Below are positions 36,738 through 59,150 of a DNA stretch of 64,000 nt, one piece after another; within the stretch, counting starts at the first letter, position 1; each line of letters opens with the position of its first letter. Where the stretch lies: NCBI GenBank assembly GCA_963664305.2, contig CAXXLV010000002.1:1504001-1568000 (forward strand). The letters run 5' to 3'. The position numbers and the translations under genes are program-made. This DNA is from an uncultured Aliarcobacter sp. GTDB taxonomy: Bacteria > Campylobacterota > Campylobacteria > Campylobacterales > Arcobacteraceae. Below the pieces are notes generated by a model, which was not told the DNA's origin, did no database searches, and worked only from the letters and a program-made list of their open reading frames with translations.

Positions 36738-37112
36738 TTAATTTTTCTCTTCTTCTAAAAGTTGTTTATACTCTTCGTCAGTAAAAATTCTTGATTTTGT
36801 TATAAATTGATAACCTAAATCTATTTCAAGGGAAAATGAGTTTCCAAAGGCAGCTTTTTCTTCTCTTACATCTATTGTTATAAAAGAGTGTTTAAAATAT
36901 TCAAATTGTTGTGGATCAATAAAAAATTCACATCCACAAATTTCTCCCATTTTTACATTACGGCTAGGGACATAAAAATCACCTTTTTCATAACACATAG
37001 GAGCCGTACCATCACAACAACCACCACTTTGATTAAAAACTAATTCACCATGAAGTTCTTTTAGTTTTTCTATCACTTTTGCTGCTGCATCTGTAACATC
37101 TACTCTTTTCAT
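36738..37112 (-). CDS. DUF779 family protein (aldehyde dehydrogenase-associated)
   Basis: FNQSGGCCDGTAPMC, FSLE; follows aldB. Confidence 0.9.
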   Translation of the reverse strand: MKRVDVTDAAAKVIEKLKELHGELVFNQSGGCCDGTAPMCYEKGDFYVPSRNVKMGEICGCEFFIDPQQFEYFKHSFITIDVREEKAAFGNSFSLEIDLGYQFITKSRIFTDEEYKQLLEEEKN

Positions 37113-37135
37113 TTTTTATCCTTTTGAATAAAAAA

Positions 37136-37161
37136 ACCCATAGAGGAGAACTTCTATGGGT
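37136..37161 (-). terminator. Intrinsic terminator/attenuator after aldB
   Basis: acccatagagg-loop-cttctatgggt, U-tract on minus strand. Confidence 0.7.
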
Positions 37162-37189
37162 ATTTATGGATTTATTTTCGCGTTAAATC

Positions 37190-38686
37190 CTAGAAGAAAC
37201 CTAATTTATTTTTATTGTATGAAGTTAAAATATTTTTTGTATGTCTATATGAATTTAACATCATCATATGAGTTTCTCTTCCGATTCCTGATTTTTTATA
37301 TCCTCCGAATGATGCATGAGATGGATACATGTGGTAGCAGTTAACCCATACTCTTCCAGCTTCTATACCTCTACTCATTCTATGTAATTGGTGAGCATCT
37401 CTTGACCATACACCTGAACCTAAACCATAGATTGTATCATTTGCAATTGCTAATGCTTCTGCTTCATCTTTGAAAGTTGTAACAGCAAGAACTGGTCCAA
37501 AAATCTCTTCTTGGAAGATTCTCATTTTGTTGTGACCTTTAAACAGTGTTGGTTGAATATAGAATCCATTTGGATTAGTTTCAGATTCAAATACATCTCC
37601 ACCAATTAACAGTTCAGCACCTTCTTCTTTACCAATATTGATGTATTCCATAATTTTTTCTTTTTGATTTAAAGAACATTGAGCACCCATCATATTTTCT
37701 GTATCTAAAGGATTTCCTAATTTAATTGCTTTAACTCTTTCAAGTACTCTTGCAATAAATGGCTCATAAATTGACTCTTGAATTAATGCTCTTGATGGAC
37801 AAGTACAAACTTCACCAGAGTTAAATGCGAATAATACTAAACCTTCGATTGCTTTATCAAAGAACTCATCATCAGCATCCATAATTGATTCAAAGAATAC
37901 ATTTGGAGATTTTCCACCTAACTCTAAAGTTGAAGGAATAATATTTTCTGTTGCATATTGCATAATTAATTGACCAGTTGTTGTTTCACCAGTAAATCCA
38001 ACTTTTTTAACTAATGGATGAGTAGATAAATATTTACCAATTTTTCCTCCAGCACCATTGATGATATTTACAACACCTTTTGGTAATACATCTTGAACTG
38101 CTTCCATTAATAATAAAATTGACATAGGTGTAGCAGATGCAGGTTTCATAACGATACAATTTCCAGCAGCAATAGCAGGAGCTAATTTCCAAGCAGCCAT
38201 TAATAATGGGAAATTCCAAGGAATAATTTGAGCAACAACACCATATGGCTCATAAATTTCTTGAGAAACTGTGTTTTCATCTAAATCTGAAACTGTTCCA
38301 GACTCAGCTCTAATTACAGATGCAAAATATCTAAAGTGGTCAACAACTAAAGGAACGTCTGCATTTAAAGTTTCTCTAATAGTTTTACCATTATCTAAAG
38401 TTTCAGCAATAGCTAATTTTTCTAAATTTGCTTCAATTGCATCAGCCATTTTATTTAATAAGTTACTTCTTTCAACAATTGATGTATGTTTAAAAGATTT
38501 GAATGCAGTATCAGCTGCAATAATTGCTGCTTCAACATCAGCTTCATTTGATCTTGGAATTCTTGTTAATAATGTTCCATCAACTGGAGAAATATTATCA
38601 AAGTACTCACCACTTTTTGGAGCAACCCATTCTCCACCTATAAAATTCTCATATTGAGCTTTGTATGTTGGTTTTGTATAAATCAT
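37190..38686 (-). CDS. aldB: NAD-dependent acetaldehyde dehydrogenase (AldB/ExaC/PedI type)
   Basis: IIPWNFP, FTGETTTG, LELGGKSP, GEVCTCPSR, EEIFGPV; SD favours ATG at 38686. Confidence 0.93.
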   Translation of the reverse strand: MIYTKPTYKAQYENFIGGEWVAPKSGEYFDNISPVDGTLLTRIPRSNEADVEAAIIAADTAFKSFKHTSIVERSNLLNKMADAIEANLEKLAIAETLDNGKTIRETLNADVPLVVDHFRYFASVIRAESGTVSDLDENTVSQEIYEPYGVVAQIIPWNFPLLMAAWKLAPAIAAGNCIVMKPASATPMSILLLMEAVQDVLPKGVVNIINGAGGKIGKYLSTHPLVKKVGFTGETTTGQLIMQYATENIIPSTLELGGKSPNVFFESIMDADDEFFDKAIEGLVLFAFNSGEVCTCPSRALIQESIYEPFIARVLERVKAIKLGNPLDTENMMGAQCSLNQKEKIMEYINIGKEEGAELLIGGDVFESETNPNGFYIQPTLFKGHNKMRIFQEEIFGPVLAVTTFKDEAEALAIANDTIYGLGSGVWSRDAHQLHRMSRGIEAGRVWVNCYHMYPSHASFGGYKKSGIGRETHMMMLNSYRHTKNILTSYNKNKLGFF

Positions 38687-38762
38687 TTTTTTCATCCTTT
38701 TAAATTTAGAAATTGAAGAAAATATCTTTTAAAAAGAGTAATTTTTTTCTTCCATTGATGAA

Positions 38763-38816: not shown

Positions 38817-38907
38817 AATGTAGTTTTTTGTTACAAATTACGATAAATTCGGCGTTTTTATCAATTTTTTTTCTTTGAAAATTTCAAAATATGTGTTACA
38901 ATTTTTT

Positions 38908-40815
38908 ATGAAAACTTTTACATATACAATAAATAATAAACCTTTAGAAAAGATAATTGATTTTTCAATGTTTGAAAACGAAAAAAATATTTTAATTCAA
39001 ATTTTTTGTGGTGAAACAAAAGAAAAATTAGAAAACATATTAGATGTTATTACAAAAAGATTAGCTCATGCTGTTTGTATAGGTTCTTCTACAGATGGAG
39101 AAATAAGTAATGATACTATTACAACAAATCAAACTATCATATCTATTTCTACTTTTGAAACAACAACAATTAAATATGCATATGTTGAAGAAGAAGACTC
39201 TTTTTCAAATGGTGTGGAACTTGCTACAAAACTTTGTACAGATACAACAAAAGCTATTATTGCTTTTAGTGATGGAGCTACTACAAATGGAGAAGAATTT
39301 TTAAATGGTATCAATTTTGTAAATAACAAAGTAATTGTAAGTGGTGGTATGGCTGCTGATAATGCAAACTTTACTCAGACATTTATCTCTTGTCAAAATA
39401 AAATATTAACAAAAGGTGCTGTTGGTATTTCTTTAAATTCTGAAGATTTAAAAGTATGTAATGCTTTTAATTTTAATTGGTCTCCAATAGGAATAGAGCA
39501 TGTTATTGAAGAAGTTGTTGGAAATAGAGTTTACAAAATCTCTGGCCTTACACCTTTAGATTTTTATGAAAAATATTTAGGAGAATATGTTGCTCGGTCA
39601 CTTCCAGCAACAGGAATAGAATTTCCTTTAATTGTACAAAAAAATAGAATTCCAATTGCAAGAGCTGTTATAGCAAAACATGAAGATGGAAGTTTGAGTT
39701 TTGCAGGGAATCTTCATAAAGGAGATGTTGTAAGACTTGGTTTTGGAAATGTTGAATTAATTCTAAGTAATCCTCTAAAATCTTTATTAGATAAATGTGC
39801 AATGAATGAAACTCAAAGTATTTTTATCTATACATGTATGGCAAGACGTAGATATATGCCAAGTTTAATTGATATAGAAATAAAACCTTTTTCAAAAATA
39901 GCACCAACTGTTGGTTTTTTTACTTATGGAGAGTTTTTTCATAATAAAGAGAATAATGAACTATTAAATCAAACACTAACGGTATTAGCTTTAACAGAAA
40001 AAACAAATTCAAATTTGGATTTGAAAGTTGAAATAAATAGTAATCAAGACAAACTTAGTGAGCATGCAAGAAGTCTGCAAGCTTTAACAAATCTAATTCA
40101 ACAATCTTCACGTGATTATAATGAACAATCAGAAAAATTAGAAAAAGGAAATAAATATGCACAAAATCTAATAGAATCTCAAAAACAGTTTTTAAAACAC
40201 GCAGTTCATGAAACAAATACTCCCTTATCAGTTATCATGGGAAATATTGAGATGTTTGAAATGGAAAATGGAAAAAACAAATACCTTTCAAATATTGAAG
40301 TTGCAATGAAAAATATCTTTAGTATTTATGATGATTTGAGTTATTTAATCAAAAAAGACCAAGTAAATTCTGCAATTCATAAAATAAATATAGTTGATTT
40401 TGTTAGAAGTAGAATTGATTTTTTTACATCTTCTGCTTTGAAATTTAAATCAAATTTTAAATTTCAATCATTAAAAGATGAAATAATTATGAATTTCAAT
40501 GAAATAAAACTTCAAAGAATAGTTGATAATAATCTTACAAATGCAATTAAATACACTCTTCCAAATGAAACAATATTTGTAAGGCTTTCTGAATTTAACT
40601 CTGAATGTCACTTTACAATTGAGAGTCGTTCAAAACAGATTTTAGACCCACAACAAATTTTTGAAGAATATTATAGAGAAGAGCTTTCAGAAGAAGGTTT
40701 TGGACTTGGACTAAATTTAGTAAAAAGAATTTGCAGTGAAGAAAATGTAGGAATTAGATTAGAATCTGGTGAAAACTTTGCTTCATTTACATATATTTTT
40801 AAAGGAGTACTATGA
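38908..40815 (+). CDS. Cytoplasmic FIST-domain sensor histidine kinase
   Basis: FIST_N (GSSTDGEI, SGGMAAD), FIST_C (CMARR, GFFTYGEF, NQT), H-box VHETNTPL, NAIKY, GFGLGL; no TM segment seen. Confidence 0.88.
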   Translation: MKTFTYTINNKPLEKIIDFSMFENEKNILIQIFCGETKEKLENILDVITKRLAHAVCIGSSTDGEISNDTITTNQTIISISTFETTTIKYAYVEEEDSFSNGVELATKLCTDTTKAIIAFSDGATTNGEEFLNGINFVNNKVIVSGGMAADNANFTQTFISCQNKILTKGAVGISLNSEDLKVCNAFNFNWSPIGIEHVIEEVVGNRVYKISGLTPLDFYEKYLGEYVARSLPATGIEFPLIVQKNRIPIARAVIAKHEDGSLSFAGNLHKGDVVRLGFGNVELILSNPLKSLLDKCAMNETQSIFIYTCMARRRYMPSLIDIEIKPFSKIAPTVGFFTYGEFFHNKENNELLNQTLTVLALTEKTNSNLDLKVEINSNQDKLSEHARSLQALTNLIQQSSRDYNEQSEKLEKGNKYAQNLIESQKQFLKHAVHETNTPLSVIMGNIEMFEMENGKNKYLSNIEVAMKNIFSIYDDLSYLIKKDQVNSAIHKINIVDFVRSRIDFFTSSALKFKSNFKFQSLKDEIIMNFNEIKLQRIVDNNLTNAIKYTLPNETIFVRLSEFNSECHFTIESRSKQILDPQQIFEEYYREELSEEGFGLGLNLVKRICSEENVGIRLESGENFASFTYIFKGVL

Positions 40816-41471
40816 AAATTTTATTAGTAGAAGATGATGAAATGTTAAATGAAATGATTACTGAATATATAAATTCAACTGGTCATGTAATAATAAGTAC
40901 AAAAACAGGTCAAGAATCTTTAGAAATCTTAGACTCCCAAAAATTTGATTTATTGATTTTAGATATTTCACTTCCAGATATAGATGGTTTTACGATTTTA
41001 GAAAAATTGCATGAACAAAAAAGAATGGTTCCAACTATTTATATTTCTGCATTAATTGATATAGAAGATATATCTAGAGCTTTTGATTTAGGTTGTTTTG
41101 ATTATCTAAAAAAACCTTTTCATCTAAAAGAACTGACTCTAAGAATAAATAAAATTCTAAAAACAAGATTGGTTCCTCAAAGACATAAAAGACTTTCAAA
41201 ACATTATAGTTTTGATGCAGAAACTATGACTTTATATTTTAATAATGAACCACATATTCTTCCAAGACGACAACTTCAAATTATTGAACTTTTAGCACAA
41301 AATAGAAGTTTAGTTGTAAACTATGATATGTTTAGAACTTATGTTTGGAATGATGATTATATAGATAATGCAACTATTAGAGCAGAAGTAAATAGAGTAA
41401 AAACTGTATTAAGAGAAGATTTTATTAAAAATATAAGAGGAAGCGGTTATATGGTTGAAAGACCTGATTAA
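40812..41471 (+). CDS. OmpR/PhoB-family response regulator
   Basis: LLVEDD, LDISLPDIDG, KPF; winged-helix C-terminus IRGSGY. Confidence 0.92.
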   Translation: MKILLVEDDEMLNEMITEYINSTGHVIISTKTGQESLEILDSQKFDLLILDISLPDIDGFTILEKLHEQKRMVPTIYISALIDIEDISRAFDLGCFDYLKKPFHLKELTLRINKILKTRLVPQRHKRLSKHYSFDAETMTLYFNNEPHILPRRQLQIIELLAQNRSLVVNYDMFRTYVWNDDYIDNATIRAEVNRVKTVLREDFIKNIRGSGYMVERPD

Positions 41472-41478
41472 GGTCTTT
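41458..41478. terminator. Bidirectional terminator between the regulator and pqqE
   Basis: aaagacct-gatta-aggtcttt. Confidence 0.6.
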
Positions 41479-41487
41479 CTTTTTATA

Positions 41488-42588
41488 TTAAATAAAAGTC
41501 AAAGAATTTAATCTATTTCTATATATGATTTTATCATCTGCATAAATCATACTATCTTCAATTTTTTTATTTATTATTCCATGGTCTGGTGATTTTATAC
41601 AAACAGGGTCAGTTGCATTCATATCTTTTGTTAATGCAAATGCTTGACATCTGCATCCTCCAAAATCTTTCTCTTTTTCATCACAAGTACGACATGGTTC
41701 TTTCATCCATTTATCACCTCTAAAATAGTTAAAGGCTTCAGATTCATACCAAATATGTTCTACTGAACTCTCTTTTACATTTGGAAAAGTTAAAGGTAAA
41801 GTATTTGCTGTATTACAAGGAAGTGCTAAACCATCTGGATTAATAGTTAAAAATGTTGTTCCCCATCCATTCATACAAGCTTTTGGTCTTGTTGCAAAAT
41901 AATCAGGAACAACAAAAAATACTTTCATATCTGTTCTTTGTGTTCTATAATAATTTGTAACTTTTCTTGCTTCACTAATTTGTTCTTGAGATGGTAAAAG
42001 TGCATTTATATTTTTTAAAGCCCACCCATAATATTGGATATTTGCGATTTCTAAATAATTTGCACCTAATTTTTCAGCAAACTCTATGATATCTCCAACT
42101 TGATGAATATTTTGTCGAGTAATACAAGTATTAATAATAAGTTGAAGACCTGCATCTTTTACCTCTTTTGCAAATGCAATTTTTTCATCATAAGAGTTTT
42201 TATTGTTTGTTATTAAAGTCATAGTATTTTTATCATGTGATTGAATACCAAGTTGAACTGTTTTAAGTCCTGCTTCTTTTAATTTTGGAACAATTCCTTT
42301 TGGAGCACCAACTCCTGAAGTTATAAGATTTGTATAAAATTTTAAATCATTTGCTTTTTTTACAATCTCTAAAACATCTTTATTTAATAAAGGCTCTCCT
42401 CCACTAATTCCAAGTTGAACAGCACCTAATTCTCTTGCTTGTTCCATCACTCTAAACCAATCTTCTTTGCTCATAGCGTCTTTTGTTTTTGCAAAATCAA
42501 GTTGGTTATAACAATATGCACACTCTAAAGGACATTTATGAGTTAATTCTAAAAGAATCCATAATGGTGGTTTTATTTCATTGTTCAT
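41488..42588 (-). CDS. pqqE: PqqA peptide cyclase, radical SAM/SPASM
   Basis: PPLWILLELTHKCPLECAYC, QYYGWA, KACMNGWG, DFGGCRCQA. Confidence 0.97.
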   Translation of the reverse strand: MNNEIKPPLWILLELTHKCPLECAYCYNQLDFAKTKDAMSKEDWFRVMEQARELGAVQLGISGGEPLLNKDVLEIVKKANDLKFYTNLITSGVGAPKGIVPKLKEAGLKTVQLGIQSHDKNTMTLITNNKNSYDEKIAFAKEVKDAGLQLIINTCITRQNIHQVGDIIEFAEKLGANYLEIANIQYYGWALKNINALLPSQEQISEARKVTNYYRTQRTDMKVFFVVPDYFATRPKACMNGWGTTFLTINPDGLALPCNTANTLPLTFPNVKESSVEHIWYESEAFNYFRGDKWMKEPCRTCDEKEKDFGGCRCQAFALTKDMNATDPVCIKSPDHGIINKKIEDSMIYADDKIIYRNRLNSLTFI

Positions 42589-42838
42589 ATTTAATCCAGT
42601 TTCTATTTTTTGCTTCTGCTAAAAAAGCATTTATATCTTGTGTTAAATCTTCCATTTCAAATTTTTCACATAAAATTTTATTTATATCTTTTACGCTGTT
42701 TTTTCCGTCACAAAGATTTAGAATTTCTCCTGCACTTTGATTTAATTGAACCATACCTTCTGGGTATAAAAGTACATAACAGTTTTGTTTTTCTTCCCAT
42801 TGAAATTGAAAATTCGGATTTACACTTATATTTTTCAT
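42578..42838 (-). CDS. pqqD: PqqA-binding chaperone (RRE)
   Basis: QWEEKQNCYVLLYPEGMVQLNQSAGEILNLCDG. Confidence 0.96.
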   Translation of the reverse strand: MKNISVNPNFQFQWEEKQNCYVLLYPEGMVQLNQSAGEILNLCDGKNSVKDINKILCEKFEMEDLTQDINAFLAEAKNRNWIKYEQ

Positions 42839-42839: not shown

Positions 42840-43550
42840 TTATCTTTCCACGTTAAAGTAAGGAGGTCTTTTTAATTCATAAGCTAAATATAAAGCATCA
42901 CAAATTGTCCATAAAATATCTAGTTTAAATTGTAAAATTGTAAAAGCTTTTTCTTGTAATTCTCTTGTATTAAACTCTTCAAGAGTAATTGCAAGTCCAT
43001 GTTGAACATCTCGTCTAGCTTCACTTAATCTTTTTTGGAAATATCTTAAACCCTTTTGTTCAATCCAAGGATAATTATCTGGCCAAGTATTTAATCTTTG
43101 TTGATGAATTTGTGGAGCAAACATCTCAGTTAAAGATGACATTGCAGCCTCTTTCCAAGGTCTTTGACGTGCAAAATTAACATAAGCATCAACTGCAAAT
43201 TTAACGCTAGGTAATAAAAATTTATGATTTATTAAATCCTCTTTTTTAAGTCCAACTGCTTCACCTAGTTCCAACCAAGCCTCTATTCCACCACCAACAC
43301 TATCATGGTCATTAATTCTATCTATCCATTTTCTTCTATCAACTAAACTATCACAGTTTGACATAATTGCAGCATCTTTAATAGGAATCATACATTGATA
43401 ATAAAATCTATTTGCAACCCAACCTTGAATCTCCTCTTTTGTACACTTACCTTCATACATTCTTATATGAAAAGGATGATGAATATGGTACATTTTTCCC
43501 ATATCTCTTAGTTTTGTTTCAAATTCTTCTTTACTAAAAACTTCTTGCAT
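42840..43550 (-). CDS. pqqC: Pyrroloquinoline-quinone synthase
   Basis: [26 protein letters not shown]. Confidence 0.97.
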
Positions 43551-43560: not shown

Positions 43561-44475
43561 TTAAATTTCTATACTCATACCATCATAAGATACTTCAATA
43601 CCATGGGATATAAGTTCTTTATACTCAGGGCTCTCTTCATCTAAGATAGGATTTGTATTATTTATATGAATTAATATCTTTCTTGGTTTTGTTAAGGTAT
43701 CTAATAAATCAATCAATCCACCCTTATCTCTTAGGGGTAAATGTCCCATATCAGTTCCAAGTTTTGAAGAAAATCCATTTTTTATCATCTCATCATTTGT
43801 CCAAACTGTTCCATCTACAAGTAAAATATCAGCTTGACTCATCTCTTCAATTATATGTTTTTCTAAAACACCAAGTCCTGGAAGATAAAACAATCTTTTC
43901 CCTGTTTTTTTATTTAAAACAACAACTCCAATATTATCACCAACTCTTGGTCTATCTCTATATTTTGAATATGGAGGTGCATTTGAAATTAGTGGAACGG
44001 CATAAAACTCACAATTTGGCATAACTGGTATAAAAAATGGTTGTTTATTAAAAGCTATTTCATTATAAACAACTCCTCCACCATCCCAGTGTTGAAGCAT
44101 TTTAAATAAAGGAAAAGAAGTATTTAACTCTTCATGAACTTCTTTTGTACAATAAACTTGATGAGGGCATCCTTCCCTTAACATCAAAAGTCCAGTTGTA
44201 TGGTCGATTTGAGCATCAATAAAAATAATAGCTTTTATTTTTGTTTCACGTCTTTGTTGTGGATGTAAAAATGGTGAATTATGAATTTGTTCTAAAATAT
44301 CAGGACTTGTATTAAATAAAACCCAATTCTCACCGTCTTCACTAATTGTAATAGAACTTTGTGTTCTTCTTTTTATAGATTTTTTTCCTTCTCTATAACC
44401 TTTACAATTATCGCAATTACAATTAAATTGAGGAAGTCCACCACCAGCAGATGAACCTAAAACTTCTATTCTCAT
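43561..44475 (-). CDS. pqqB: PQQ biosynthesis hydroxylase, MBL fold
   Basis: [40 protein letters not shown]. Confidence 0.97.
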
Positions 44476-44603: not shown

Positions 44604-44678
44604 TTATTCATGACAAATATACATTGTCACTTCAAAACCAAATCTATTGTCAACAAACATAGGTTTTTCCCATTTCAT
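44604..44678 (-). CDS. pqqA: PQQ precursor peptide, 24 aa MKWEKPMFVDNRFGFEVTMYICHE (absent from ORF track)
   Basis: Manual translation; W-x-K-P and RFGFEVTMY with E-x3-Y; SD AAGGAGG upstream. Confidence 0.96.
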   Translation of the reverse strand: MKWEKPMFVDNRFGFEVTMYICHE

Positions 44679-46544: not shown

Positions 46545-46576
46545 AGTATACATAACAAATATAGCCTAAGTTTAGC
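46545..46576 (-). promoter_or_regulatory. pedH promoter: GCTAAA-N5-GCTATA plus -10 TATACT
   Basis: + strand TATAGC 46560, TTTAGC 46571; -10 at 46545-46550. Confidence 0.72.
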
Positions 46577-49039: not shown

Positions 49040-49068
49040 ATTTTTATTCTCCATTTATTTTATGATGA

Positions 49069-50319: not shown

Positions 50320-50773
50320 AATCTTTTTATTCATTTTTCTTTTCTCTTCTTTTTTACACGCAAATTATGAAATCATAGAAAATGAAAACTTTTTTGTTGT
50401 AAAAACAGCAAACACAAATTTTCAAGAAAATCTTTTAAAACTAAAAGATGAGATAAACTTTCAAGGTTTTGTGATAGTTTATGAATTAAATCTAGCAAAA
50501 TCAACAAATGAAGTAGCAACTTTACTTGAAAAAAAATCTTATCTAAAAAATGGTACAAATCTAGGAATTTGTAAAGCAAGTTTTACGTATGAAATGGTAG
50601 AAGAAAATTTTAATAATATAAATTATTGCCCTCTTGGATTATCAATATATGAAGATTTTGATGGTTCTTTTTATATTTCATTTAAAAAATATAAACCCTT
50701 TAAAAATGAAGAAAAAATAGCAAATAAGATAAATGAAAAACTGAAAGATTTGATTTTTAAAAGTTTAGAGTAA
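50312..50773 (+). CDS. Exported DUF302-like protein
   Basis: Signal peptide from MNKIFLF; conserved Cys pair (GICKAS ... INYCPL). Confidence 0.65.
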   Translation: MNKIFLFIFLFSSFLHANYEIIENENFFVVKTANTNFQENLLKLKDEINFQGFVIVYELNLAKSTNEVATLLEKKSYLKNGTNLGICKASFTYEMVEENFNNINYCPLGLSIYEDFDGSFYISFKKYKPFKNEEKIANKINEKLKDLIFKSLE

Positions 50774-50777: not shown

Positions 50778-51653
50778 TCAAACTTCTTTTAAGTACTCTA
50801 AAATTTTTAGATTTTTTATCTCAAACTTTGAAAAAGCGAACCATTTTTTCCCTAAATCTTTCAAACTTGCTCCTATATGAAAAACTTCTTTTTTATCGAT
50901 TATTAGAAATCTATCGTGAGAGCTTTTAAACTCATAAAGTTCTATATTTTTGTATTGTTTTTGGTACTTTTCAAAATCTAGTTTTAATGATTTTGAAATA
51001 GTATGAATATAAATTCTGGTTTTTATATTTGGATATTTAGAAAAAAGAGTAAAAACTGTTTCATCTATATAGTTATCGATTAAAGTTATTTCATTTGTTG
51101 CATTTTTTAATAAATCATTTATAAAAACATACGCATCAAAAATCTCTCCATTATAAAATATCCCTTGTTTTGGTTTTAGTTTTTTGTCTTCAAGCGAGTT
51201 TGAGATATTTTCTACTTTTGATTTTAGGATTATTACTTCTTTTTCCAGTTCTTTAAATCTTTGATTAGTAATTTTTTCACCATTAATAGCATAACCATTT
51301 TGAATATAATTTTTTAATATAGAAGTTGCCCATTGTCTAAATTTAACACCTTTTTGCGATTTCACACGATAACCAACAGAGATAATTACATCTAAATTAT
51401 AGTATTCAATATCTCTTCTTACTTCTCTTTCTCCTTCCTTTTGAAGTGTCGCAAATTTTGCGACAGTTGAATATATTTCTAATTCTTTATCTTTGAAAAC
51501 ATTACTAATATGTTTACCAATTGTTTTTATATCTCTACCAAAAAGTTCTGATATTTGGTTTCTATTTAGCCATACAGTTTCATTTTCAACCGAAACATTT
51601 AGTTCTAATTCACCATCATTATAAACTACTATATTTGATTTATTTTCTTCCAT
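50778..51653 (-). CDS. RhuM-family DNA-binding protein with C-terminal PLD-like nuclease domain
   Basis: ETVWL, YNLDVIISVGYRVKS.KG.KFRQWAT; HDRFLIID..HIGASLKDLGKK. Confidence 0.8.
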   Translation of the reverse strand: MEENKSNIVVYNDGELELNVSVENETVWLNRNQISELFGRDIKTIGKHISNVFKDKELEIYSTVAKFATLQKEGEREVRRDIEYYNLDVIISVGYRVKSQKGVKFRQWATSILKNYIQNGYAINGEKITNQRFKELEKEVIILKSKVENISNSLEDKKLKPKQGIFYNGEIFDAYVFINDLLKNATNEITLIDNYIDETVFTLFSKYPNIKTRIYIHTISKSLKLDFEKYQKQYKNIELYEFKSSHDRFLIIDKKEVFHIGASLKDLGKKWFAFSKFEIKNLKILEYLKEV

Positions 51654-51899: not shown

Positions 51900-53099
51900 T
51901 TAAAATTCGATATTAACTGCACCAACAACAGTATGCATATCTTCTAAACTGTTTTTATCAAAATCACCAAATGCATATCTTAAACCAAGAGTTGCACTTT
52001 TATTTAAAGCATAAGATAAACCTAAATCATATTCGTTGATTTTTAAATCTTCATTTAAACTTGAAAAAGTTGTATCTTTGATTTTATGTTGAGCTATATT
52101 TGACTCTAATGTTAAAGCTTGTGTTAAATCATATTCAAAATTTAAAGCAAAGATAGTTGTATCACCATATTTTCCAACTCTATTAAATGAATCCGTCCCT
52201 AAATCAGCATTTGTAAAATATGTTACAGGTAGATTTTCCCCTGATACATAACCATCTTTTGTATGAACTGCTGCTGCACCAATTTTAAAATCATTGATTT
52301 GTTTAGCAACTTTTAAATATGCTCCAAACATTTTTTCATCAACTTGTCCTGCTGTCGAATTACTTCTATCACCAGTTCTTTTTTCAACTTGTGTTTGTAA
52401 TTCTAATCCAGCAACTTCACCCATTGCAAAGGCATTGAACATATGACTTGTTGCATCATTATAAATTGCAGAATTTGTAGCTGTTTCAGTATTGTTTTGT
52501 AAGTAAACATATCTTCCACCAACAAGTAATTTATCAAGAATAACTTGTCCACCTAAACCATATGCATCAAAATCTCCAGTTCCAGTTCCTGATGAATTAG
52601 CACCTAAGAATGTATTTTGGTCATTATTTTTACCTTCAACTGCTTTAAAATCAAATGCATATAATAAAGTATTTTCAACTGGTGTATAACCTAAAAGAGC
52701 TAAATCAATTTTATCTCCATTAGAACCATAAAAAGGTGTTCCATATGTATCATTTATTCTTCCAGCAATTAGTAATTTATCTTGATTAAATGGAACTGTT
52801 ACATAAGCTTCTTCCCACTCAAAAGTATCGTTTGAGTTATCACCCCAAGCATCATTTTGTAATTTTATAGCTGTGTGAACTTTTATACCTTCAAGTGTAG
52901 TAAAGTCTAAATTTAGATTAACTTCTGAATCAATAATTTGTTTATCTTTTTTAACTGTTGCTGTATCACCTTTTACAGAAATTCCCCTAACTTCTGCATC
53001 ACCAGAGATTTTTAAATCTGATGCTATTTCTATAGTACCTGCCATTAATGAACTTACTACAACTGATGTTGCAAAACTGATTAATCCTAACTTTTTCAA
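51900..53099 (-). CDS. Outer membrane porin-like beta-barrel
   Basis: Signal peptide, alternating beta-strand pattern, C-terminal Phe (..AVNIEF); TTG start with SD AAGGA. Confidence 0.78.
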   Translation of the reverse strand: MKKLGLISFATSVVVSSLMAGTIEIASDLKISGDAEVRGISVKGDTATVKKDKQIIDSEVNLNLDFTTLEGIKVHTAIKLQNDAWGDNSNDTFEWEEAYVTVPFNQDKLLIAGRINDTYGTPFYGSNGDKIDLALLGYTPVENTLLYAFDFKAVEGKNNDQNTFLGANSSGTGTGDFDAYGLGGQVILDKLLVGGRYVYLQNNTETATNSAIYNDATSHMFNAFAMGEVAGLELQTQVEKRTGDRSNSTAGQVDEKMFGAYLKVAKQINDFKIGAAAVHTKDGYVSGENLPVTYFTNADLGTDSFNRVGKYGDTTIFALNFEYDLTQALTLESNIAQHKIKDTTFSSLNEDLKINEYDLGLSYALNKSATLGLRYAFGDFDKNSLEDMHTVVGAVNIEF

Positions 53100-53159: not shown

Positions 53160-53235
53160 ATTATATCAAGGAGTTATAGCCTCAGAATAGCCCATAAATA
53201 GCCTATCTATAGCGTTTATATAGCTTAATTATAGC
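53160..53235 (-). promoter_or_regulatory. Porin promoter: six ATAGC (GCTAT) repeats at exact 11-bp period plus -10 TATAAT
   Basis: Hexamers at 53175, 53186, 53197, 53208, 53219, 53230; -10 at 53160-53165. Confidence 0.8.
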
Positions 53236-53278
53236 ATTAATAAAAAATTATTTTTTTGTAATTTTAAGTACATTTTTT

Positions 53279-53683
53279 TTATTTGTATTTACCGTATTCC
53301 TTAAAAGTTTTATCTTCAAAAATAACAAAAACTGTTTTAGTTTCTTTATCATTTTCATAAGCTGGAAGAGATAATCCTATAGAATTTTTTACAGGATTTT
53401 TTAAAAAATCATTTATTGCTAGACTTGGAACATTTCCTTCAAATACAAAATCTTTATATATTGAAGTATTACAAGATTGTATCTCTTTTGGTATTCCAAC
53501 ATTTCTTTTTAATGCTTTCATATCAATCATTGATACAACATCCACACTTTCATTTACATCACTCTTGATTTTGTCTAACCAATCTTGGGGACAAGTGCTA
53601 CTAACTGGCTTAAATATTTGAATCTTTTCATCAAATGCAAATAGACTCAAAGCCAAAAACAAAATAAATACTAACTTTTTCAT
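53279..53683 (-). CDS. Exported DUF411-like protein with altered metal ligands
   Basis: SCNT..FEGNVP..GLSLP resembles DUF411 SCHT..EGHVP..GLAVP. Confidence 0.6.
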   Translation of the reverse strand: MKKLVFILFLALSLFAFDEKIQIFKPVSSTCPQDWLDKIKSDVNESVDVVSMIDMKALKRNVGIPKEIQSCNTSIYKDFVFEGNVPSLAINDFLKNPVKNSIGLSLPAYENDKETKTVFVIFEDKTFKEYGKYK

Positions 53684-54381
53684 ATTTCTCCTTCTAATAT
53701 TTTGGGATAAGTTTTAAATAATCTATTTTTTATTTCATCAATTTTTTCCATATCAAACTCTTGATTATTTTCATTTTTATATTCATAGATTATTTTGGCT
53801 GGATTTTTACCAAAAAACAAAATCCTATTTGAAAGATATATCGCTTCACTTAAATCATGAGTAACTAAAATCACACTACTTTTAAACTCTTTGCAAAGAT
53901 TTAAAAAAAATCTTTTTAGATTTAGTGCAGTTGGAAAATCCAAAGATAAAAATGGTTCATCAAGAAGTACGATTTTTGGTTCATTGATAAAAGTTCTAAT
54001 CAAAGCAATTCGTCTTGCCATTCCACCAGAGATTTCATTTGGGTATTTTTCTAAAATATCTTTTTTTAATTCAACAAAAGATAAAAACTTTTCAATCTTT
54101 TTTATATCTTTATTTTTAGAAAATAAAAGCAAATTCTCTTTTATTGTAAGCCAAGGTAATAATAGATTTTCTTGAAACATATATCCGATATTTGAAGATT
54201 TTAAGTTTACATTTCCTATAAACTCTTTATCCAAAGAAGCAACTATTTTTAATAAAGTTGTTTTACCACAACCAGATGGTCCAATAATTGATAAAAATTC
54301 TGAATCTTTTATATTGATTTTTATATCTTCTAAAATTTTGTTTTTTTCATAATATTTTGTTTTGATTTCTATATTTATCAT
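53680..54381 (-). CDS. NitT/TauT-family ABC ATP-binding protein
   Basis: GPSGCGKT, FQE..LLPW, ISGGMARR, LDEPF, VTHD. Confidence 0.9.
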   Translation of the reverse strand: MINIEIKTKYYEKNKILEDIKINIKDSEFLSIIGPSGCGKTTLLKIVASLDKEFIGNVNLKSSNIGYMFQENLLLPWLTIKENLLLFSKNKDIKKIEKFLSFVELKKDILEKYPNEISGGMARRIALIRTFINEPKIVLLDEPFLSLDFPTALNLKRFFLNLCKEFKSSVILVTHDLSEAIYLSNRILFFGKNPAKIIYEYKNENNQEFDMEKIDEIKNRLFKTYPKILEGEI

Positions 54382-54382
54382 T

Positions 54383-55117
54383 TTAAATCCATCTTCTATA
54401 TTTTTTTTCCATAGGAGTTAAAAACAATCTTTCAAACAAAAATATAATAAAAATAAAACAAAAAGTATAAGCAAATATTGATGTTATATCAAAGTATTGG
54501 AAAAACATAGAGATTTGAAAACCAACTCCATCACTTCTTCCTAAAAGTTCAACAACCAAAACCAATTTCCAAATCAAAGATATAGCAATTCTACTACTTG
54601 AAATCAAAGATGGATACAAATAAGGAATATAGATTTTAAATAGCGTCTCTTTAAAATTTAGGTTATATACTTTTACTAATTGTAAATATTTTTTATCCAA
54701 AGAACTAACTGCCTCTTTTATATTTACAATGATAATTGGAACTTTGTTTATAACAACAGCTAAAATCAAAGAAAAATCAGTTAATCCAAACCAAATATAA
54801 CAAATAACTATTGTTACAAGAGCTGGAATATTTAAAGCAATTAACAAAAAGATAGAAAAAAAGTTTTCAATTTTTGTTGAAATTCCCATCAAAAATCCCA
54901 AAAATATTCCAATAATCATAGTAATAACAAAAGCTAAAACAACTCGATATAAAGTAATACTAATATTTTCAATCAAATCTTTGTTTTTAAAATGTTCAAC
55001 AATAGAATAAAAAATATCAATCAAAGATGGAAAAAGTTCTGAATTTACTAAAAGTGAAATTGCTTGCCAAACAATACAAAAAAGAATTATTGAAAATATT
55101 TTTGTTTCATTAAACAT
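54383..55117 (-). CDS. NitT/TauT-family ABC permease
   Basis: LNIPALV..YIWFGL, WKLVLVVELLGRSDGVG. Confidence 0.88.
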   Translation of the reverse strand: MFNETKIFSIILFCIVWQAISLLVNSELFPSLIDIFYSIVEHFKNKDLIENISITLYRVVLAFVITMIIGIFLGFLMGISTKIENFFSIFLLIALNIPALVTIVICYIWFGLTDFSLILAVVINKVPIIIVNIKEAVSSLDKKYLQLVKVYNLNFKETLFKIYIPYLYPSLISSSRIAISLIWKLVLVVELLGRSDGVGFQISMFFQYFDITSIFAYTFCFIFIIFLFERLFLTPMEKKYRRWI

Positions 55118-56074
55118 TTATTGAACCTTATAAAAAATATCTTTTTCTAAAACTCTGCTCTCTTGTGATAAATCATCTTTTCCTTCATTTAATAAAAGTG
55201 AAAATATTTTTTCTATGTCTTTAATATTTTCATTTGTAAAATCTTTTATAATTGATTTTTTATATCCCTCTTTTAATGCTTCAAAATCATTTTCATTATC
55301 AACTTTCATTATATCTTTTAATCTATCCCACTCTTTTTCGCTACTATTTAAAATATCTTTTGCTTCAAAACTAGCCTTTAAAAAAGAGTTTATTAAATCA
55401 TGATTTTCAATTGAAAAATCTTTATAAAATGTCCAACCAACAAAAGGAATATCACTATTTACTCCAAATTCACTAAAAACATTTTCCATTAGAACTAAAG
55501 GTTTCATACCAAATTTTTCTAATTTTGCATTAAAATGCCAATAATTTATACTTGCATTCAAAGACTCATCTTCCATTTTTTTATATAAAATTGGTGCTGT
55601 TGCAAAAACTGGTTTTACTATATTTTTTAAATCTAAATTATATTTTTTCTTTGCATAAGCTCTTAAAATAATCCAAGTTTTATCATCAACTCCACCTGCA
55701 ATTCCCAATTCTTTATCTTTTAAATTTTCAAAAGTTTTTATTTCACTTTTAGGATTTATATAAAGAGTTCCTGTAGCTTTTGAATAAGGATAAAAAACAA
55801 ATTGTTTATTTTTATCTCTTTGTGTATTTACCCAAATCCAATCATTTACAATCATATCTACACTTTTTGATTGAAGTGCGATTAATTGGGCATTTTTTGA
55901 AGCTAATTGAGTAAGTTGTAAGTCAAATCCATACTTTTTATCAAGTTCATAATGTTTAATTACATCTAATTCCCAGTTTACTGTTCCATAATTTAAAACA
56001 CCTATTTTCAAAACATTTTGTGCATACAAATTTGATATTATTAAAGCTACTATAAATAGGACTTTTTTACTCAT
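55118..56074 (-). CDS. Periplasmic binding protein, PqqT-like (probable PQQ binding)
   Basis: IGVLNYGTVNWEL, FYPYS, GIAGG.DDKTW.IL, NYWHFNAKLE resemble Methylorubrum PqqT as recalled; SD favours ATG at 56074. Confidence 0.72.
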   Translation of the reverse strand: MSKKVLFIVALIISNLYAQNVLKIGVLNYGTVNWELDVIKHYELDKKYGFDLQLTQLASKNAQLIALQSKSVDMIVNDWIWVNTQRDKNKQFVFYPYSKATGTLYINPKSEIKTFENLKDKELGIAGGVDDKTWIILRAYAKKKYNLDLKNIVKPVFATAPILYKKMEDESLNASINYWHFNAKLEKFGMKPLVLMENVFSEFGVNSDIPFVGWTFYKDFSIENHDLINSFLKASFEAKDILNSSEKEWDRLKDIMKVDNENDFEALKEGYKKSIIKDFTNENIKDIEKIFSLLLNEGKDDLSQESRVLEKDIFYKVQ

Positions 56075-56103
56075 AATTACTCCCAATTTTTATTAATTTT
56101 GCA

Positions 56104-56188
56104 ATTGTATATAAATTTTATAGCGTGAATTTAGCAATGAAAAGAATTTTTCCATCGCTATAATTAGGCTATAAAGAGGGTTTATAAT
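56104..56188. promoter_or_regulatory. Divergent promoters, each with a paired GCTAWA box 9 nt from a -10 hexamer
   Basis: Minus: TATAGC 56119, TTTAGC 56130, -10 TACAAT 56104-56109. Plus: GCTATA 56157 and 56168, TATAAT 56183-56188. Confidence 0.75.
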
Positions 56189-56221
56189 TCCACTAATCAA
56201 AAAAAATTGAAAAGGAAAATT

Positions 56222-56626
56222 ATGAAAAAAATAAGTTTAGCGGTTTTAGCAACTGCAGTTTTTGCTTTTGGACATGGAAGTGTTACACCTCAAGCAATTG
56301 ATACAAAATCATTAAAACAACTTGGAAAAGAGTGGTTAGGTGAGAATCCTTATAAAGGTGACAAAAAAGCTGAAGAGTTAGGAAAATATGCATATAGCGA
56401 AAACTGTGCTAGATGTCATGGTTTAGATGCAATTTCTGGTGGGGTTGCTCCTGATTTAAGAGCATTAGATGAAGGGATTGATGGTGATGAGTGGTTCTTA
56501 GAAAGAATCAGAGGTGGTGCTGTTAGAAATGGAAATGTTTATATGCCTCCATTTGAAGGTGTATTAACACAAGAAGCTATGTGGGCTATTAGAGCTTACT
56601 TAATTACATTACCAAAGCCTGAATAA
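56222..56626 (+). CDS. pedF: Cytochrome c550 (PedF/ExaB), electron acceptor of the PQQ-ADH
   Basis: Signal peptide, HGSVTPQAIDT, CARCH haem motif, APDLR, YMPPF. Confidence 0.93.
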   Translation: MKKISLAVLATAVFAFGHGSVTPQAIDTKSLKQLGKEWLGENPYKGDKKAEELGKYAYSENCARCHGLDAISGGVAPDLRALDEGIDGDEWFLERIRGGAVRNGNVYMPPFEGVLTQEAMWAIRAYLITLPKPE

Positions 56627-57486
56627 TGTTTTTCAAACTTTTTGTAATTCTATTCTTATCTGTTCTAGCAATTGCAAGAAGCATTGACCAAATAAAAGAG
56701 AGTGGAGAAATCATCATAGCAGTTTATGAGGATTTTCCTCCTTACTCTTTTAAAGAAAATGGTGTTGCAAAAGGTATAGATGTAGAAGTTGGAAAACTAA
56801 TCGCTAAATCTTTAAATGTAAAACCAGTATGGTATTTTACGGGTTTTGATGAAAATTTATCTGCAGATTTAAGAAATACAATTTGGAGAGGAAATCTTAT
56901 TCACAAAACAAAAGCTGATGTAATGCTTAGAATTCCTTATGATTACGATTATCTAAGAATGACTGATAAATACACTGGTGAATTAGAAAATGAAAAAGTA
57001 TCAATAAAAGCTCCATATCAAAGTGATAAATGGATTATTGCAACACATAAAAAAGTAATTCCAGAGATAAAAACACTTGGTATTTTTGCATATAACACTA
57101 TTGGTGTTGAAGTAGATACGCTTCCTGATTTTCATCTAATGAGTATTAGAACTATTGGTAAAAATGTAAAACACTACACAAAATTTGAAGATGCTTTTAA
57201 AGATTTTAAAGATGGGAAAATTGATGCAATTGCAGGTTTAAAAACTCAACTTCAATATCTTTTAAATTATAAAAAGAATAAAGATTTATACTATCTTACA
57301 GATGGTATTCCTATGCTTCCAACTAATCATTGGGATTTAGCAACTGCTGTTTCTAGTAGTTATAAAGACCTTAGTTATCATATTGATAATGTTGTAGAAG
57401 ATGCTTACAAAGATGGAAAAATTAAAAAAATCTTTGAAAAATTTAATGTGGAGTATCAAGAGCCGATTTCAAAAACACAAAAATAG
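56626..57486 (+). CDS. Quinoprotein-associated periplasmic binding protein (PedG/XoxJ/MxaJ-like)
   Basis: VYEDFPPYS, DENLSADLRN.IWRG, ADVMLRIPYD; follows the c550 gene. Confidence 0.8.
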   Translation: MFFKLFVILFLSVLAIARSIDQIKESGEIIIAVYEDFPPYSFKENGVAKGIDVEVGKLIAKSLNVKPVWYFTGFDENLSADLRNTIWRGNLIHKTKADVMLRIPYDYDYLRMTDKYTGELENEKVSIKAPYQSDKWIIATHKKVIPEIKTLGIFAYNTIGVEVDTLPDFHLMSIRTIGKNVKHYTKFEDAFKDFKDGKIDAIAGLKTQLQYLLNYKKNKDLYYLTDGIPMLPTNHWDLATAVSSSYKDLSYHIDNVVEDAYKDGKIKKIFEKFNVEYQEPISKTQK

Positions 57487-57495
57487 GAGATTTAT

Positions 57496-58245
57496 ATGAA
57501 AAAAATATTTTTACTGGTTTTATCTTTTTTGATAATTCAAAATTTATACGCCAATAATCCAGTAGCTTCTCCTACTTTTGACTCACTATTAAGTGAATTT
57601 ATCAAAAATGACAAATATATTTTTGATGATAAAAATATAACTATCAAAGTACCAAGTTTTGCTGACAATCCAATCCAAGTGCCAATCTTCGTAGATGCTA
57701 AAAAAATAAAAAATGCAAAAAGAGTTATTGTTTTTGCAGATTTAAATCCAATCCCAAAAATCATTGATATGAATTTAGAAAATGGTCTTTTACCTATTAT
57801 TTCTGTAAATATAAAAGTAGCACAAGAGACACCTCTACGAGCATTAGTTTTAGATGATAAAAATATTTGGCATATTGGAAGTAAAAATATAAAAAGTTTT
57901 GGTGGAGGTTGTTCTGTTTCAAGTGCAGCTTCAGGAGATTCTGATTATGACAAACTTTTAGGTAAAGGTAAAGCTGAAATTTTTAAAAATGAAAATAGTT
58001 TTAGAATAAAAAGTTCAATATTTCATCCTATGGAAACAGGTTTAATATTTGGAAATACTGAATTTTATATAAATAAAATAGTTCTAAAAGCTAACAATAA
58101 AGAGTTTGGAGAAGTTTTAGTTTATTCTGCTGTTAGTGAAAATCCAAGATTTATTTTTGAAACAAATATAGATGAAAAAGAGTACAAACTTGAATTTATG
58201 GATACAGATTCAAATAAATTTATTCAAACAATAACTAAGGAATAA
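57496..58245 (+). CDS. Quinoprotein dehydrogenase-associated SoxYZ-like carrier
   Basis: ADLNPIP, GGGCS swinging-arm Cys, HPMETG, SENP. Confidence 0.85.
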   Translation: MKKIFLLVLSFLIIQNLYANNPVASPTFDSLLSEFIKNDKYIFDDKNITIKVPSFADNPIQVPIFVDAKKIKNAKRVIVFADLNPIPKIIDMNLENGLLPIISVNIKVAQETPLRALVLDDKNIWHIGSKNIKSFGGGCSVSSAASGDSDYDKLLGKGKAEIFKNENSFRIKSSIFHPMETGLIFGNTEFYINKIVLKANNKEFGEVLVYSAVSENPRFIFETNIDEKEYKLEFMDTDSNKFIQTITKE

Positions 58246-58247
58246 AA

Positions 58248-59150
58248 ATGAGATTTTTAATTCTTTTTTATTGTACATTTTTATTTTCTGCCCAGTTTGA
58301 TTATAAGTTAAAACCTATAAAATTAAATGAAAATAGCTACTATTTTTATGGAAAAGAAGAATACTTTTCAACAAAAAATGGTGGAGATATAGCAAACACT
58401 TCATTTATAATCACAAAAAACAGTGTTATTTTAATAGATACCGGAAGTTCAGAACTTTATGGTGAGCAGATTAAAAAGGCTATTTCTAAAATCACTTCAA
58501 AACCTATAAAATATATCATAAACACGCACCATCATCCTGACCATTTTTTAGGAAATAGTGCTTTTATAAATAGCAATATTTATGCTTCAAAATTTACAAA
58601 AGAAGAGATAGAAAACAATGGAGAATTGTATATTACAAATCTAACAAATTTAGTTAATGAAGCAATATCAAATACTAAAGTAAAAGCTCCAAATCAAATA
58701 TTAAATTCAAAAGAATTAGATTTTGATGGTTACAAGTTGAAAGTTTTATATTTTGATGGACATACAAAAAGTGATGTTGCTATTTATGATGAAAAAACAA
58801 AAATTCTTTATGCCTCTGATTTAATTTTTAATAAAAGAACAATGGCTACACCACATGCAAATATAAATAAGTGGATAGCCTCTTTAAAAGAGTTAAAAAA
58901 TATAGATTTTAAACTCACAGTGCCAGGACATGGAATTGCTTTTGAAAATAAAAGTGTAATTGATGAAAATATTAATTATTTAAAATATTTGGATAATACT
59001 CTAAAAAATAGTGCAAAAAAAGGACTTGATATATTTGAAATTTTAAATCTTCCTATTCCAAAAGAGTTCAATAACTTTACAATGTTTAAAGAAGAGTTTG
59101 AAAGAAGTGTTATAAATCTTTATCCAACTTATGAAAAAGAGTTAAATTAA
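58248..59150 (+). CDS. Quinoprotein relay system zinc metallohydrolase (SoxH-like, MBL fold)
   Basis: NGGDIAN, IDTG, THHHPDHFLGN, GHT, VPGHG. Confidence 0.85.
   Translation: MRFLILFYCTFLFSAQFDYKLKPIKLNENSYYFYGKEEYFSTKNGGDIANTSFIITKNSVILIDTGSSELYGEQIKKAISKITSKPIKYIINTHHHPDHFLGNSAFINSNIYASKFTKEEIENNGELYITNLTNLVNEAISNTKVKAPNQILNSKELDFDGYKLKVLYFDGHTKSDVAIYDEKTKILYASDLIFNKRTMATPHANINKWIASLKELKNIDFKLTVPGHGIAFENKSVIDENINYLKYLDNTLKNSAKKGLDIFEILNLPIPKEFNNFTMFKEEFERSVINLYPTYEKELN

Follow-up and report, generated by a model that had tools for sequence, protein, structure and literature searches.

Could the rare-earth-dependent oxidation of alcohols occur in Campylobacterota? Bacterial rare-earth use has been studied in methylotrophs and in Pseudomonas. 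The question is raised here by 64,000 nucleotides of an uncultured Aliarcobacter sp. of the Arcobacteraceae (contig CAXXLV010000002.1, positions 1,504,001 to 1,568,000; hereafter the window), in which the gene of a pyrroloquinoline quinone (PQQ)-dependent alcohol dehydrogenase (ADH) stands beside genes for PQQ synthesis. As judged from sequence comparison, the locus is a PedH-type system with a lanthanide signature, widespread in Arcobacteraceae and of proteobacterial origin, which forms a dispensable 19-kb block beside a conserved module of sensor, regulator and aldehyde dehydrogenase. Probably, it encodes a functional system for oxidising alcohols in the periplasm, similar in kind to Pseudomonas ped or Methylorubrum ExaF, with one PQQ dehydrogenase of the lanthanide type at its centre.

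An earlier note on this DNA knew of no characterised example of such a system in the phylum, and our search of the open-access literature found none: no paper was retrieved that links Arcobacter, Arcobacteraceae or the phylum to PQQ enzymes, xoxF or lanthanides. The accessible portions of PMC7284936, PMC9841196, PMC8999231, PMC11845868, PMC3158115, PMC11830464, PMC11219375, PMC12375747 and PMC9386943 do not connect Arcobacter with PQQ or lanthanides. In those of PMC7284936, PQQ dehydrogenase transcripts are assigned to Colwellia, and in those of the 2024 review PMC11845868 the terms 'Campylobacter' and 'Epsilon' do not occur. The genome is that of an Arcobacteraceae member, as the earlier note had supposed; the nearest records, at 87-77% identity, are titled Aliarcobacter or Arcobacter.

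The dehydrogenase and its gene set

The gene calls in the window are based on a list of open reading frames, a Pfam scan and an NCBIfam scan. The ADH, a protein of 596 amino acids (aa), scores 865 bits against PDB entry 6ZCW and 860 against 6ZCV, compared with 679 against the ethanol dehydrogenase 1FLG; the first two entries, described in the search output as 'quinoprotein ethanol dehydrogenase', are what we take to be PedH of P. putida. Its stretches G-G-E-F-G-V-V-G-K and H-D-G-W-D-F-D-G match 6ZCW exactly, and its P-W-N-S-H-L-R-x-G-D-N stretch is one residue apart; which residues of these metal and PQQ stretches are ligands is our assumption. Within W-D-F-D-G, an Asp sits two residues past the catalytic Asp (D-x-D), at the place of the Ser or Ala of calcium enzymes. 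According to the accessible part of PMC5487730, Ser295 of PedE occupies the position of the PedH Asp that is tied to lanthanide coordination. In an alignment of 95 sequences, D-[FY]-D is found in all 93 orthologues and D-F-S in both paralogues, and the Cys-Cys pair of P-C-C-D occurs in 95 of the 95 rows. By homology, the ADH is a PedH/ExaF-type enzyme bearing the putative lanthanide Asp.

The N-terminus of the ADH has a lipobox, L-I-S-G-C. With a regular expression whose outputs were read by eye, a lipobox was seen in 13 of the 25 Campylobacterota orthologue rows, the rest having an ordinary signal peptide; the expression also matched 6 of 69 proteobacterial rows, mostly where cleavage looks implausible. 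The single PQQ-ADH of the earlier note agrees with the genome search, in which it is the sole PQQ dehydrogenase found. Therefore, there is no pair of calcium and lanthanide enzymes to switch between.

The alcohol-oxidation gene set spans 36738-60603 of the window. The genes named in the earlier note (pqqABCDE, PQQ-ADH, c550, carriers, ABC systems, porin, aldB and a two-component system) were all recovered at or near the places it had given them, and four more were found, namely a DUF411-like gene (53279-53683), a DUF302-like gene (50279-50773), a RhuM-like gene (50778-51653) and an M17 peptidase gene (59158-60603). That note had called the system complete; the gene set stands, and the completeness is overstated, since no outer-membrane lanthanide uptake part was identified, a genome-wide search not having been made. 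Likewise, Pfam revealed no LutH-type receptor or lanmodulin among the proteins of 36.7-60.7 kb, with the same limit on scope. The features are as follows.

36738..37112, minus strand: DUF779 protein, aldehyde dehydrogenase partner (PF05610, E 1.4e-35)
37190..38695, minus strand: ExaC/PedI-like NAD-dependent aldehyde dehydrogenase (NF050026, 834 bits, cut-off 900; PF00171, 515 bits)
38875..40815, plus strand: sensor kinase, NosP-like FIST fused to HisKA/HATPase (FIST_N, FIST_C, HisKA, HATPase_c)
40812..41471, plus strand: OmpR-type response regulator (Response_reg and Trans_reg_C)
41488..42588, minus strand: pqqE (TIGR02109, 474.9 bits, cut-off 381)
42578..42838, minus strand: pqqD (NF002535, 108.2 bits, cut-off 101)
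42840..43550, minus strand: pqqC (TIGR02111, 337.5 bits, cut-off 240)
43561..44475, minus strand: pqqB (TIGR02108, 380.8 bits, cut-off 245)
44604..44678, minus strand: pqqA precursor peptide, 24 aa (E-V-T-M-Y, read from the translated sequence)
44705..46495, minus strand: PedH-type PQQ alcohol dehydrogenase with predicted lipoprotein signal (TIGR03075, 782.6 bits, cut-off 480)
46572..47354, minus strand: PedC, ABC-2 permease (TIGR03861, 338.8 bits, cut-off 241)
47359..48078, minus strand: PedB, ABC ATPase (TIGR03864, 285.8 bits, slightly below the cut-off of 302)
48080..49054, minus strand: PedA2, periplasmic beta-propeller (TIGR03866, 502.6 bits, cut-off 287)
49168..50319, plus strand: PedA1, substrate-binding protein (TIGR03863, 412.9 bits, slightly below the cut-off of 413.6)
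50279..50773, plus strand: small secreted protein, weakly DUF302-like (E 0.017; probable start at the ATG of M-N-K-I-F)
50778..51653, minus strand: RhuM-like gene (PF13310, E 4.8e-26)
51900..53099, minus strand: porin-like outer-membrane protein, 399 aa (signal peptide, C-terminal Phe, atlas 'porin' cluster)
53279..53683, minus strand: DUF411(CopG)-like secreted protein (PF04214, 25.1 bits, cut-off 27)
53680..54381, minus strand: ABC ATPase of the PqqT-like importer (ABC_tran; nearest NCBIfam model SaoA-like)
54383..55117, minus strand: permease of the PqqT-like importer (BPD_transp_1)
55118..56086, minus strand: PqqT-like periplasmic binding protein, 322 aa (PDB 9B1U/9B1V, E 6e-44)
56207..56626, plus strand: cytochrome c550 PedF (TIGR04494, 192.8 bits, cut-off 122)
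56626..57486, plus strand: PedG-like periplasmic binding protein (SBP_bac_3; place after PedF)
57496..58245, plus strand: fused SoxYZ-like protein, PP_2677-like (TIGR04557, 138 bits, cut-off 140)
58248..59150, plus strand: quinoprotein relay metallo-hydrolase, PP_2678-like (TIGR04558, 370.6 bits, cut-off 300)
59158..60603, minus strand: second M17 leucyl aminopeptidase (Peptidase_M17)

With the ADH taken as forward, the order is M17; on the opposite strand the hydrolase, SoxYZ-like, PedG-like and PedF genes; then the PqqT-like binding protein, permease, ATPase, DUF411-like, porin-like and RhuM-like genes; on the opposite strand the DUF302-like gene and PedA1; then PedA2, PedB, PedC, ADH and pqqA-B-C-D-E; on the opposite strand the OmpR-type regulator and the FIST kinase; and then the ExaC-like and DUF779 genes.

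All five pqq genes are present: pqqB to pqqE score above the NCBIfam cut-offs, and pqqA, which sits between the ADH gene and pqqB, has the Glu-x3-Tyr motif. The PqqT-like binding protein, whose gene is adjoined by those of a permease and an ATPase, aligns over 273 residues (E 6e-44) to 9B1U/9B1V; 9B1U is PqqT with bound PQQ, and the PQQ contacts are named in PMC11331073. With an offset of 27 in the alignment, three of these contacts are conserved, namely Thr41, Gly112 and Lys142, which tethers PQQ, and two, Glu111 and Asn143, are replaced by Thr. It should be noted that a second, divergent pqqC (258-265 bits) occurs in three genomes of the same genus (G004:C22:111654-112331, G019:C61:20-697 and G025:C79:8045-8722), and that an extra pqqE-like gene lies near the cluster in genomes with the second pqqC (L013, L049).

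The four components of the PedA1A2BC transporter, which is needed for lanthanide-dependent growth of P. putida according to the accessible part of PMC12997753, are also present, PedA2 and PedC above the cut-offs and PedA1 and PedB slightly below; a PDB search with PedA1 gave no match. The protein at 56626-57486 reaches 25.5 bits on the PedG/XoxJ/MoxJ family model TIGR03871 (cut-off 212), is 27-41% identical to the gene in the same place of proteobacterial loci, and retrieved only generic amino-acid binding proteins from PDB. The 399-aa porin-like protein matched no Pfam family, even at E up to 5. Its first atlas match is a Campylobacterota 'porin' cluster (0.99) with Porin_4 on 13% of the members, which is a lead and no proof.

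Two small secreted proteins have no counterpart in the proteobacterial loci. The DUF411-like gene, for which tblastn gave no match there, overlaps the ATPase gene of the PqqT-like importer by 4 bases, and the motifs S-C-N-T-S and F-E-G-N-V-P are conserved in 6 of 6 Campylobacterota copies (window, L015, L043, L048, L050 and L051); at both Asn positions the canonical copper-binding CopG presumably has His. Orthologues of the DUF302-like protein are found in eight Campylobacterota loci, at 29-71% identity. The alignments of both proteins contain conserved Cys and Asn motifs.

Distribution and phylogeny in Campylobacterota

The ADH family was matched in 59 of the 184 Arcobacteraceae species genomes (55 above the cut-off; 10 of 22 genera). 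In 55 of the 59 matching genomes, 59 ADH stretches could be read, 50 with D-[FY]-D and nine with D-F-S; G023, G141 and G117 were excluded from this count as fragments or spurious matches, and G167 and G171 were included though broken or cut by a contig end. In G167 (G167:C15:400674-402246), the ADH is in two overlapping pieces, probably owing to a frameshift, and the kinase was not found (E up to 1e-60). With the window genome included, the lanthanide-type (D-x-D) ADH is carried by 51 of the 184 genomes. The D-F-S paralogue of the calcium type, whose frames are longer (631-648 aa), occurs in nine genomes, G017, G042, G047, G090, G107, G155, G156, G168 and G170 (loci L095-L103); five of these have the calcium type only, and four have both types about 5-14 kb apart. 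For pqqC, the count is 57 of 184, the per-genus counts equal those of the ADH except for fragment or spurious ADH matches, and in the genomes compared by coordinates pqqC lies within a few kb of the ADH. The system described in the earlier note is real, and is not the oddity of a single genome.

Outside the family, the ADH was above the cut-off in none of 377 genomes, an even sample of the phylum; 401 genomes were sampled beyond the full family set. Two metagenome-assembled genomes (MAGs) beyond the family set, one titled Sulfurimonadaceae bacterium and the other Sulfuricurvum sp., have the same cluster, on contigs of 226 and 403 kb; G+C is 51% and 41% in these Sulfurimonadaceae-labelled loci. 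The records titled Sulfurospirillum sp. and Campylobacteraceae bacterium are the family genomes G065 and G165. Isolates with the cluster include Arcobacter caeni RW17-10 and Poseidonibacter lekithochrous A1R12.

The proteins of the window were searched with tblastn on 80 loci. As far as their contigs extend, 12 Campylobacterota loci have the gene order of the window, both of those with 41% and 51% G+C among them. In proteobacterial loci, PedF-PedG-SoxYZ-hydrolase typically stands directly before the ADH. A quick maximum likelihood tree (LG+G4, with Shimodaira-Hasegawa-like approximate likelihood ratio test, SH-aLRT, support only) was built of all 95 rows, among them the best 80 of 582 relatives and 12 family loci, and was rooted on the two D-F-S paralogues. 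The 25 Campylobacterota orthologues form one clade (SH-aLRT 100) within Pseudomonadota, whose sister (98) contains Pseudomonas, Stutzerimonas, Alteromonas, Aestuariibacter, Amphritea, Zhongshania and Halioxenophilus. Such a single nested clade points to one old transfer. Based on these results, the system was probably transferred once, long ago, from a proteobacterium to Campylobacterota, with patchy loss, replacement or re-transfer afterwards as a 19-kb block beside the widely retained module of kinase, regulator and ExaC. The earlier note had also suggested an old acquisition, with which the tree agrees, and its statement that the cluster is as AT-rich as its flanks is correct, the G+C being 0.23-0.34 in the cluster bins and 0.22-0.31 in the flanks.

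The ADH stretch is also present in environmental sequence runs of 14 studies. Four runs were mapped onto 41000-60900, where the DNA run X3 covers all 30 bins; the uncovered parts in the RNA runs X15-X17 are uninformative. Three metatranscriptome runs, each from a different study (one of wastewater, two of sludge), have contigs that fall on the ADH, pqqB/C, PedF/PedG and the porin-like gene, with 92-99% likeness.

The 19.2-kb block and its neighbourhood

The extent of the system is best seen by comparison with G011, a genome of the same genus without ADH or pqqC. It is syntenic with the window (83-100% protein identity) between position 14 kb and the response regulator at 40812-41471, the last common gene before the indel, and passes from there directly to the aldolase (window 60702), without about 19.2 kb (41472-60690). 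The break falls within the spacer that separates the regulator gene from the aldolase gene (fba), and the variable unit is 41472-60690 and not 36738-59150 as proposed before. In one sludge RNA library, a contig joins 41471 to 60695 with 23 letters between, of which 22 match the G011 spacer; the library holds island contigs as well as this island-less junction, and therefore both alleles occur in one community. In the left flank, a 1046-aa CBS-PAS-GGDEF-EAL protein (28924-32064) and a double-Cache histidine kinase (32057-33988) have G011 counterparts of 89% and 84%, respectively, and ExbB/ExbD (34933-35822) are common to G011.

Since G011 retains the kinase, the regulator, ExaC (97% identical) and DUF779 without having the island, these genes are not the island's own. 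The earlier note had assigned the cluster its own regulators, which does not hold: the FIST kinase and OmpR-type regulator are the only two-component pair of the locus, the pair is also found in genomes without the ADH, and the kinase occurs in 138 of the 184 family genomes (E up to 1e-60). For example, it is present in all 15 ADH-bearing genomes of the genus and in seven without ADH, and another genus has the kinase in 7 of 7 genomes and the ADH in 0 of 7. DUF779 adjoins ExaC in the window and in proteobacterial loci.

The FIST kinase has weak matches to the NosP model in its N-terminal part (E 1.8e-15) and to a NahK/ErcS-associated model in its C-terminal part. In P. putida, the ped cluster includes PP_2663 (NosP-like) and PedS1 (NahK/ErcS'), as listed in Table 1 of PMC12997753. 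Because of these matches, the window kinase looks like a fusion of the two, by resemblance only. At least nine genomes (e.g., G054:C1:2772166-2774070 and G169:C1:3166350-3168251) contain a FIST-kinase paralogue of about 50% identity with one in-frame TAA, which may represent a NosP-like gene followed by a separate in-frame kinase gene.

We also considered the island as a mobile element, and rejected this, as no integrase, transposase or recombinase gene and no flanking repeats were seen. Hairpins were found by a promoter and terminator scan at both indel edges and beside the RhuM-like insertion (51762-51781); the promoter-like sites of the locus are rarer than in shuffles, which is uninformative. 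The RhuM-like gene is a later insertion into the island. It occupies 982 bases (50774-51755), and a DNA contig of run X3 links 50773 to 51756 with four other letters between. The gene is also found in L048.

Then, is the block an ancestral locus that was lost in G011, or did it arrive recently from another Campylobacterota lineage, through insertion into the regulator/fba spacer or replacement there? An arrival of this kind is possible, though on balance we consider it doubtful. In the tree, the window ADH and that of L013 are placed with Poseidonibacter and the two Sulfurimonadaceae-labelled MAGs (SH-aLRT 99) and not with the remaining rows of the same genus, and both alleles are found among near relatives. 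The block has, moreover, its own second PepA copy: the island M17 protein is 50% identical to the genome's other copy (G000:C2:1218147-1219550) and 48-51% to the copies of relatives, it is the non-island copy that resembles the latter, and the island copy is absent from the syntenic site of G011. However, in other genera too (L046, L050-L052) the block is next to this module of regulator, kinase and ExaC, which is consistent with an ancestral position followed by losses. In addition, the lack of any visible integrase, transposase or flanking repeat speaks against a recent arrival, and the other island proteins are about as distant from same-genus copies as is the kinase (73-92%). Note that an M17 gene follows pqqE in the Sulfurimonadaceae-labelled loci L015 and L043.

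Proposed function, alternatives and significance

In the mechanism we propose, a short-chain alcohol would cross the outer membrane, possibly via the porin-like protein, and would be oxidised to the aldehyde by the membrane-anchored PedH-type enzyme with PQQ and a light lanthanide. The electrons would pass through cytochrome c550 (PedF) to a cbb3 oxidase, and the ExaC-like NAD enzyme would turn the aldehyde into the acid in the cytoplasm; ccoN of the cbb3 oxidase is found elsewhere in the genome (687.7 bits). PQQ would be made by pqqABCDE and probably also imported by the PqqT-like ABC system, PedA1A2BC would carry the lanthanide into the cytoplasm, as in P. putida, and the PedG-like, SoxYZ-like and metallo-hydrolase proteins may assist the maturation or protection of the enzyme. 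The rare-earth-type alcohol respiration suggested in the earlier note passes every sequence test that was run (PedH/ExaF type, lanthanide Asp, ped accessory set and pqq operon), lanthanide dependence itself being what we infer.

Several points weigh against this picture. Metal dependence, substrates, electron route and regulation are read from sequence, the first three by homology. Four NCBIfam models are slightly below their cut-offs, i.e., those of ExaC (834/900), PedB (285.8/302), PedA1 (412.9/413.6) and the SoxYZ-like protein (138/140), and the PedG-like protein is named for its place after PedF, the same place as in proteobacterial loci. The cluster yielded no lanmodulin, no switch of the PedS2/PedR2 type and no part for lanthanide uptake across the outer membrane, the genome not having been searched for them. 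Isocitrate lyase and AcsA were not found above the cut-offs in the window's own genome, and growth on ethanol as sole carbon source is therefore unsupported by the checks made. The RNA contigs indicate presence and give no expression level, with DNA carry-over possible. As to origin, the donor or sister group is tentative because the tree was a quick one on the best 80 of 582 relatives.

Could the enzyme then use calcium or another metal in vivo, the Asp being no predictor of the metal in this lineage? All Campylobacterota enzymes of this type are known from sequence alone, and 'broad metal selectivity' is attributed to a PedE-type enzyme in the title of one paper (PMC10409515). However, the motif stretches equal those of the 6ZCW chain or differ from them at one residue, D-x-D occurs in 93 of 93 orthologues compared with D-F-S in the calcium-type paralogues of the same family, and PedA1A2BC, which P. 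putida needs for lanthanide-dependent growth (PMC12997753, accessible part), is co-located, which makes an enzyme that is not lanthanide-dependent very unlikely. It is also rather unlikely, though less so, that the system mainly detoxifies or co-metabolises volatile alcohols and aldehydes, or gives extra electrons, with no growth on ethanol and perhaps with another substrate. This would be in line with the missing isocitrate lyase and AcsA matches, with the dispensability of the island among close relatives, and with the broad substrate range and detoxifying role of the Pseudomonas ped system in the accessible parts of PMC5487730 and PMC12997753. On the other hand, the genes for passing electrons to a c-type cytochrome and on to the cbb3 oxidase are there, and therefore energy conservation is possible; the ExaC-like enzyme would yield acetate and NADH, isocitrate lyase and AcsA being what was checked of the routes from acetate to biomass.

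A further idea, which we hold to be improbable, is a lanthanide-only version peculiar to Campylobacterota, in which its own metal-handling parts (the DUF411/CopG-like, DUF302-like and porin-like proteins and the lipid-anchored ADH) replace the LutH/lanmodulin route. The DUF411/CopG-like protein, co-transcribed with the PqqT-like importer, would be a part of it. If this were true, the presumed His of CopG included, the DUF411-like or the DUF302-like protein would be a periplasmic chaperone of a new kind, for lanthanide or for PQQ.

Compared with the P. putida KT2440 ped cluster, the locus is alike in the enzyme type with the lanthanide Asp, in the c550, binding protein, SoxYZ-like protein, metallo-hydrolase, four-part ABC system and NAD aldehyde dehydrogenase, in the porin-like gene (PP_2662 there), and in the NosP-like sensing domain and kinase, which recall PP_2663 and PedS1. 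However, the window genome is without the calcium enzyme PedE, and the cluster is without a LuxR-type or PedS2/PedR2-like pair, the pentapeptide PedD, the rhodanese PP_2666 and YiaY. In the window, the ADH is directly followed by pqqABCDE, two ABC systems separate PedF-PedG-SoxYZ-hydrolase from the ADH, sensor and kinase are fused into one protein that is paired with an OmpR-type regulator, a lipobox is present on the ADH, and DUF411-like, DUF302-like and M17 genes are extra.

The ExaF of Methylorubrum extorquens AM1 is likewise an ethanol dehydrogenase of the lanthanide kind whose gene has PedF- and PedG-like genes at its flanks (PMC12997753, accessible part), and the PQQ-binding periplasmic protein PqqT of that organism is homologous to the protein at 55118-56086, which differs at two of the five readable ligand positions. 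Unlike M. extorquens, the window organism is no methylotroph as far as the genes of the locus show, and no XoxF, lut cluster or lanmodulin was identified, the genome not having been searched for lut and lanmodulin. With the calcium-dependent ExaA/ExaB/ExaC of P. aeruginosa, the locus shares the fold, the Cys-Cys ring, the c550 partner and the ExaC aldehyde dehydrogenase, whereas the ExaA type and PedE have Ser where the window ADH has Asp, and the ADH scores lower against 1FLG than against 6ZCW (679 and 865 bits). Overall, the system is of a known kind, and its local peculiarities are the joining of pqq to the ADH, the lipobox, the fused sensor kinase and the three small or extra genes.

Sewage, sludge, sediments and animals commonly harbour Arcobacteraceae, among which are emerging enteric pathogens. 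The locus predicts a lanthanide need for alcohol oxidation in more than a quarter of the species of this family, many of them, the window genome among these, without a calcium-type alternative. The clean presence and absence of the 19-kb block among near relatives provides natural controls. If the prediction is true, lanthanide biology would reach another phylum, and this may bear on culturing and enrichment, on the turnover of alcohols in wastewater, and on how lanthanides enter bacteria in which none of the known kinds of uptake route has so far been identified.

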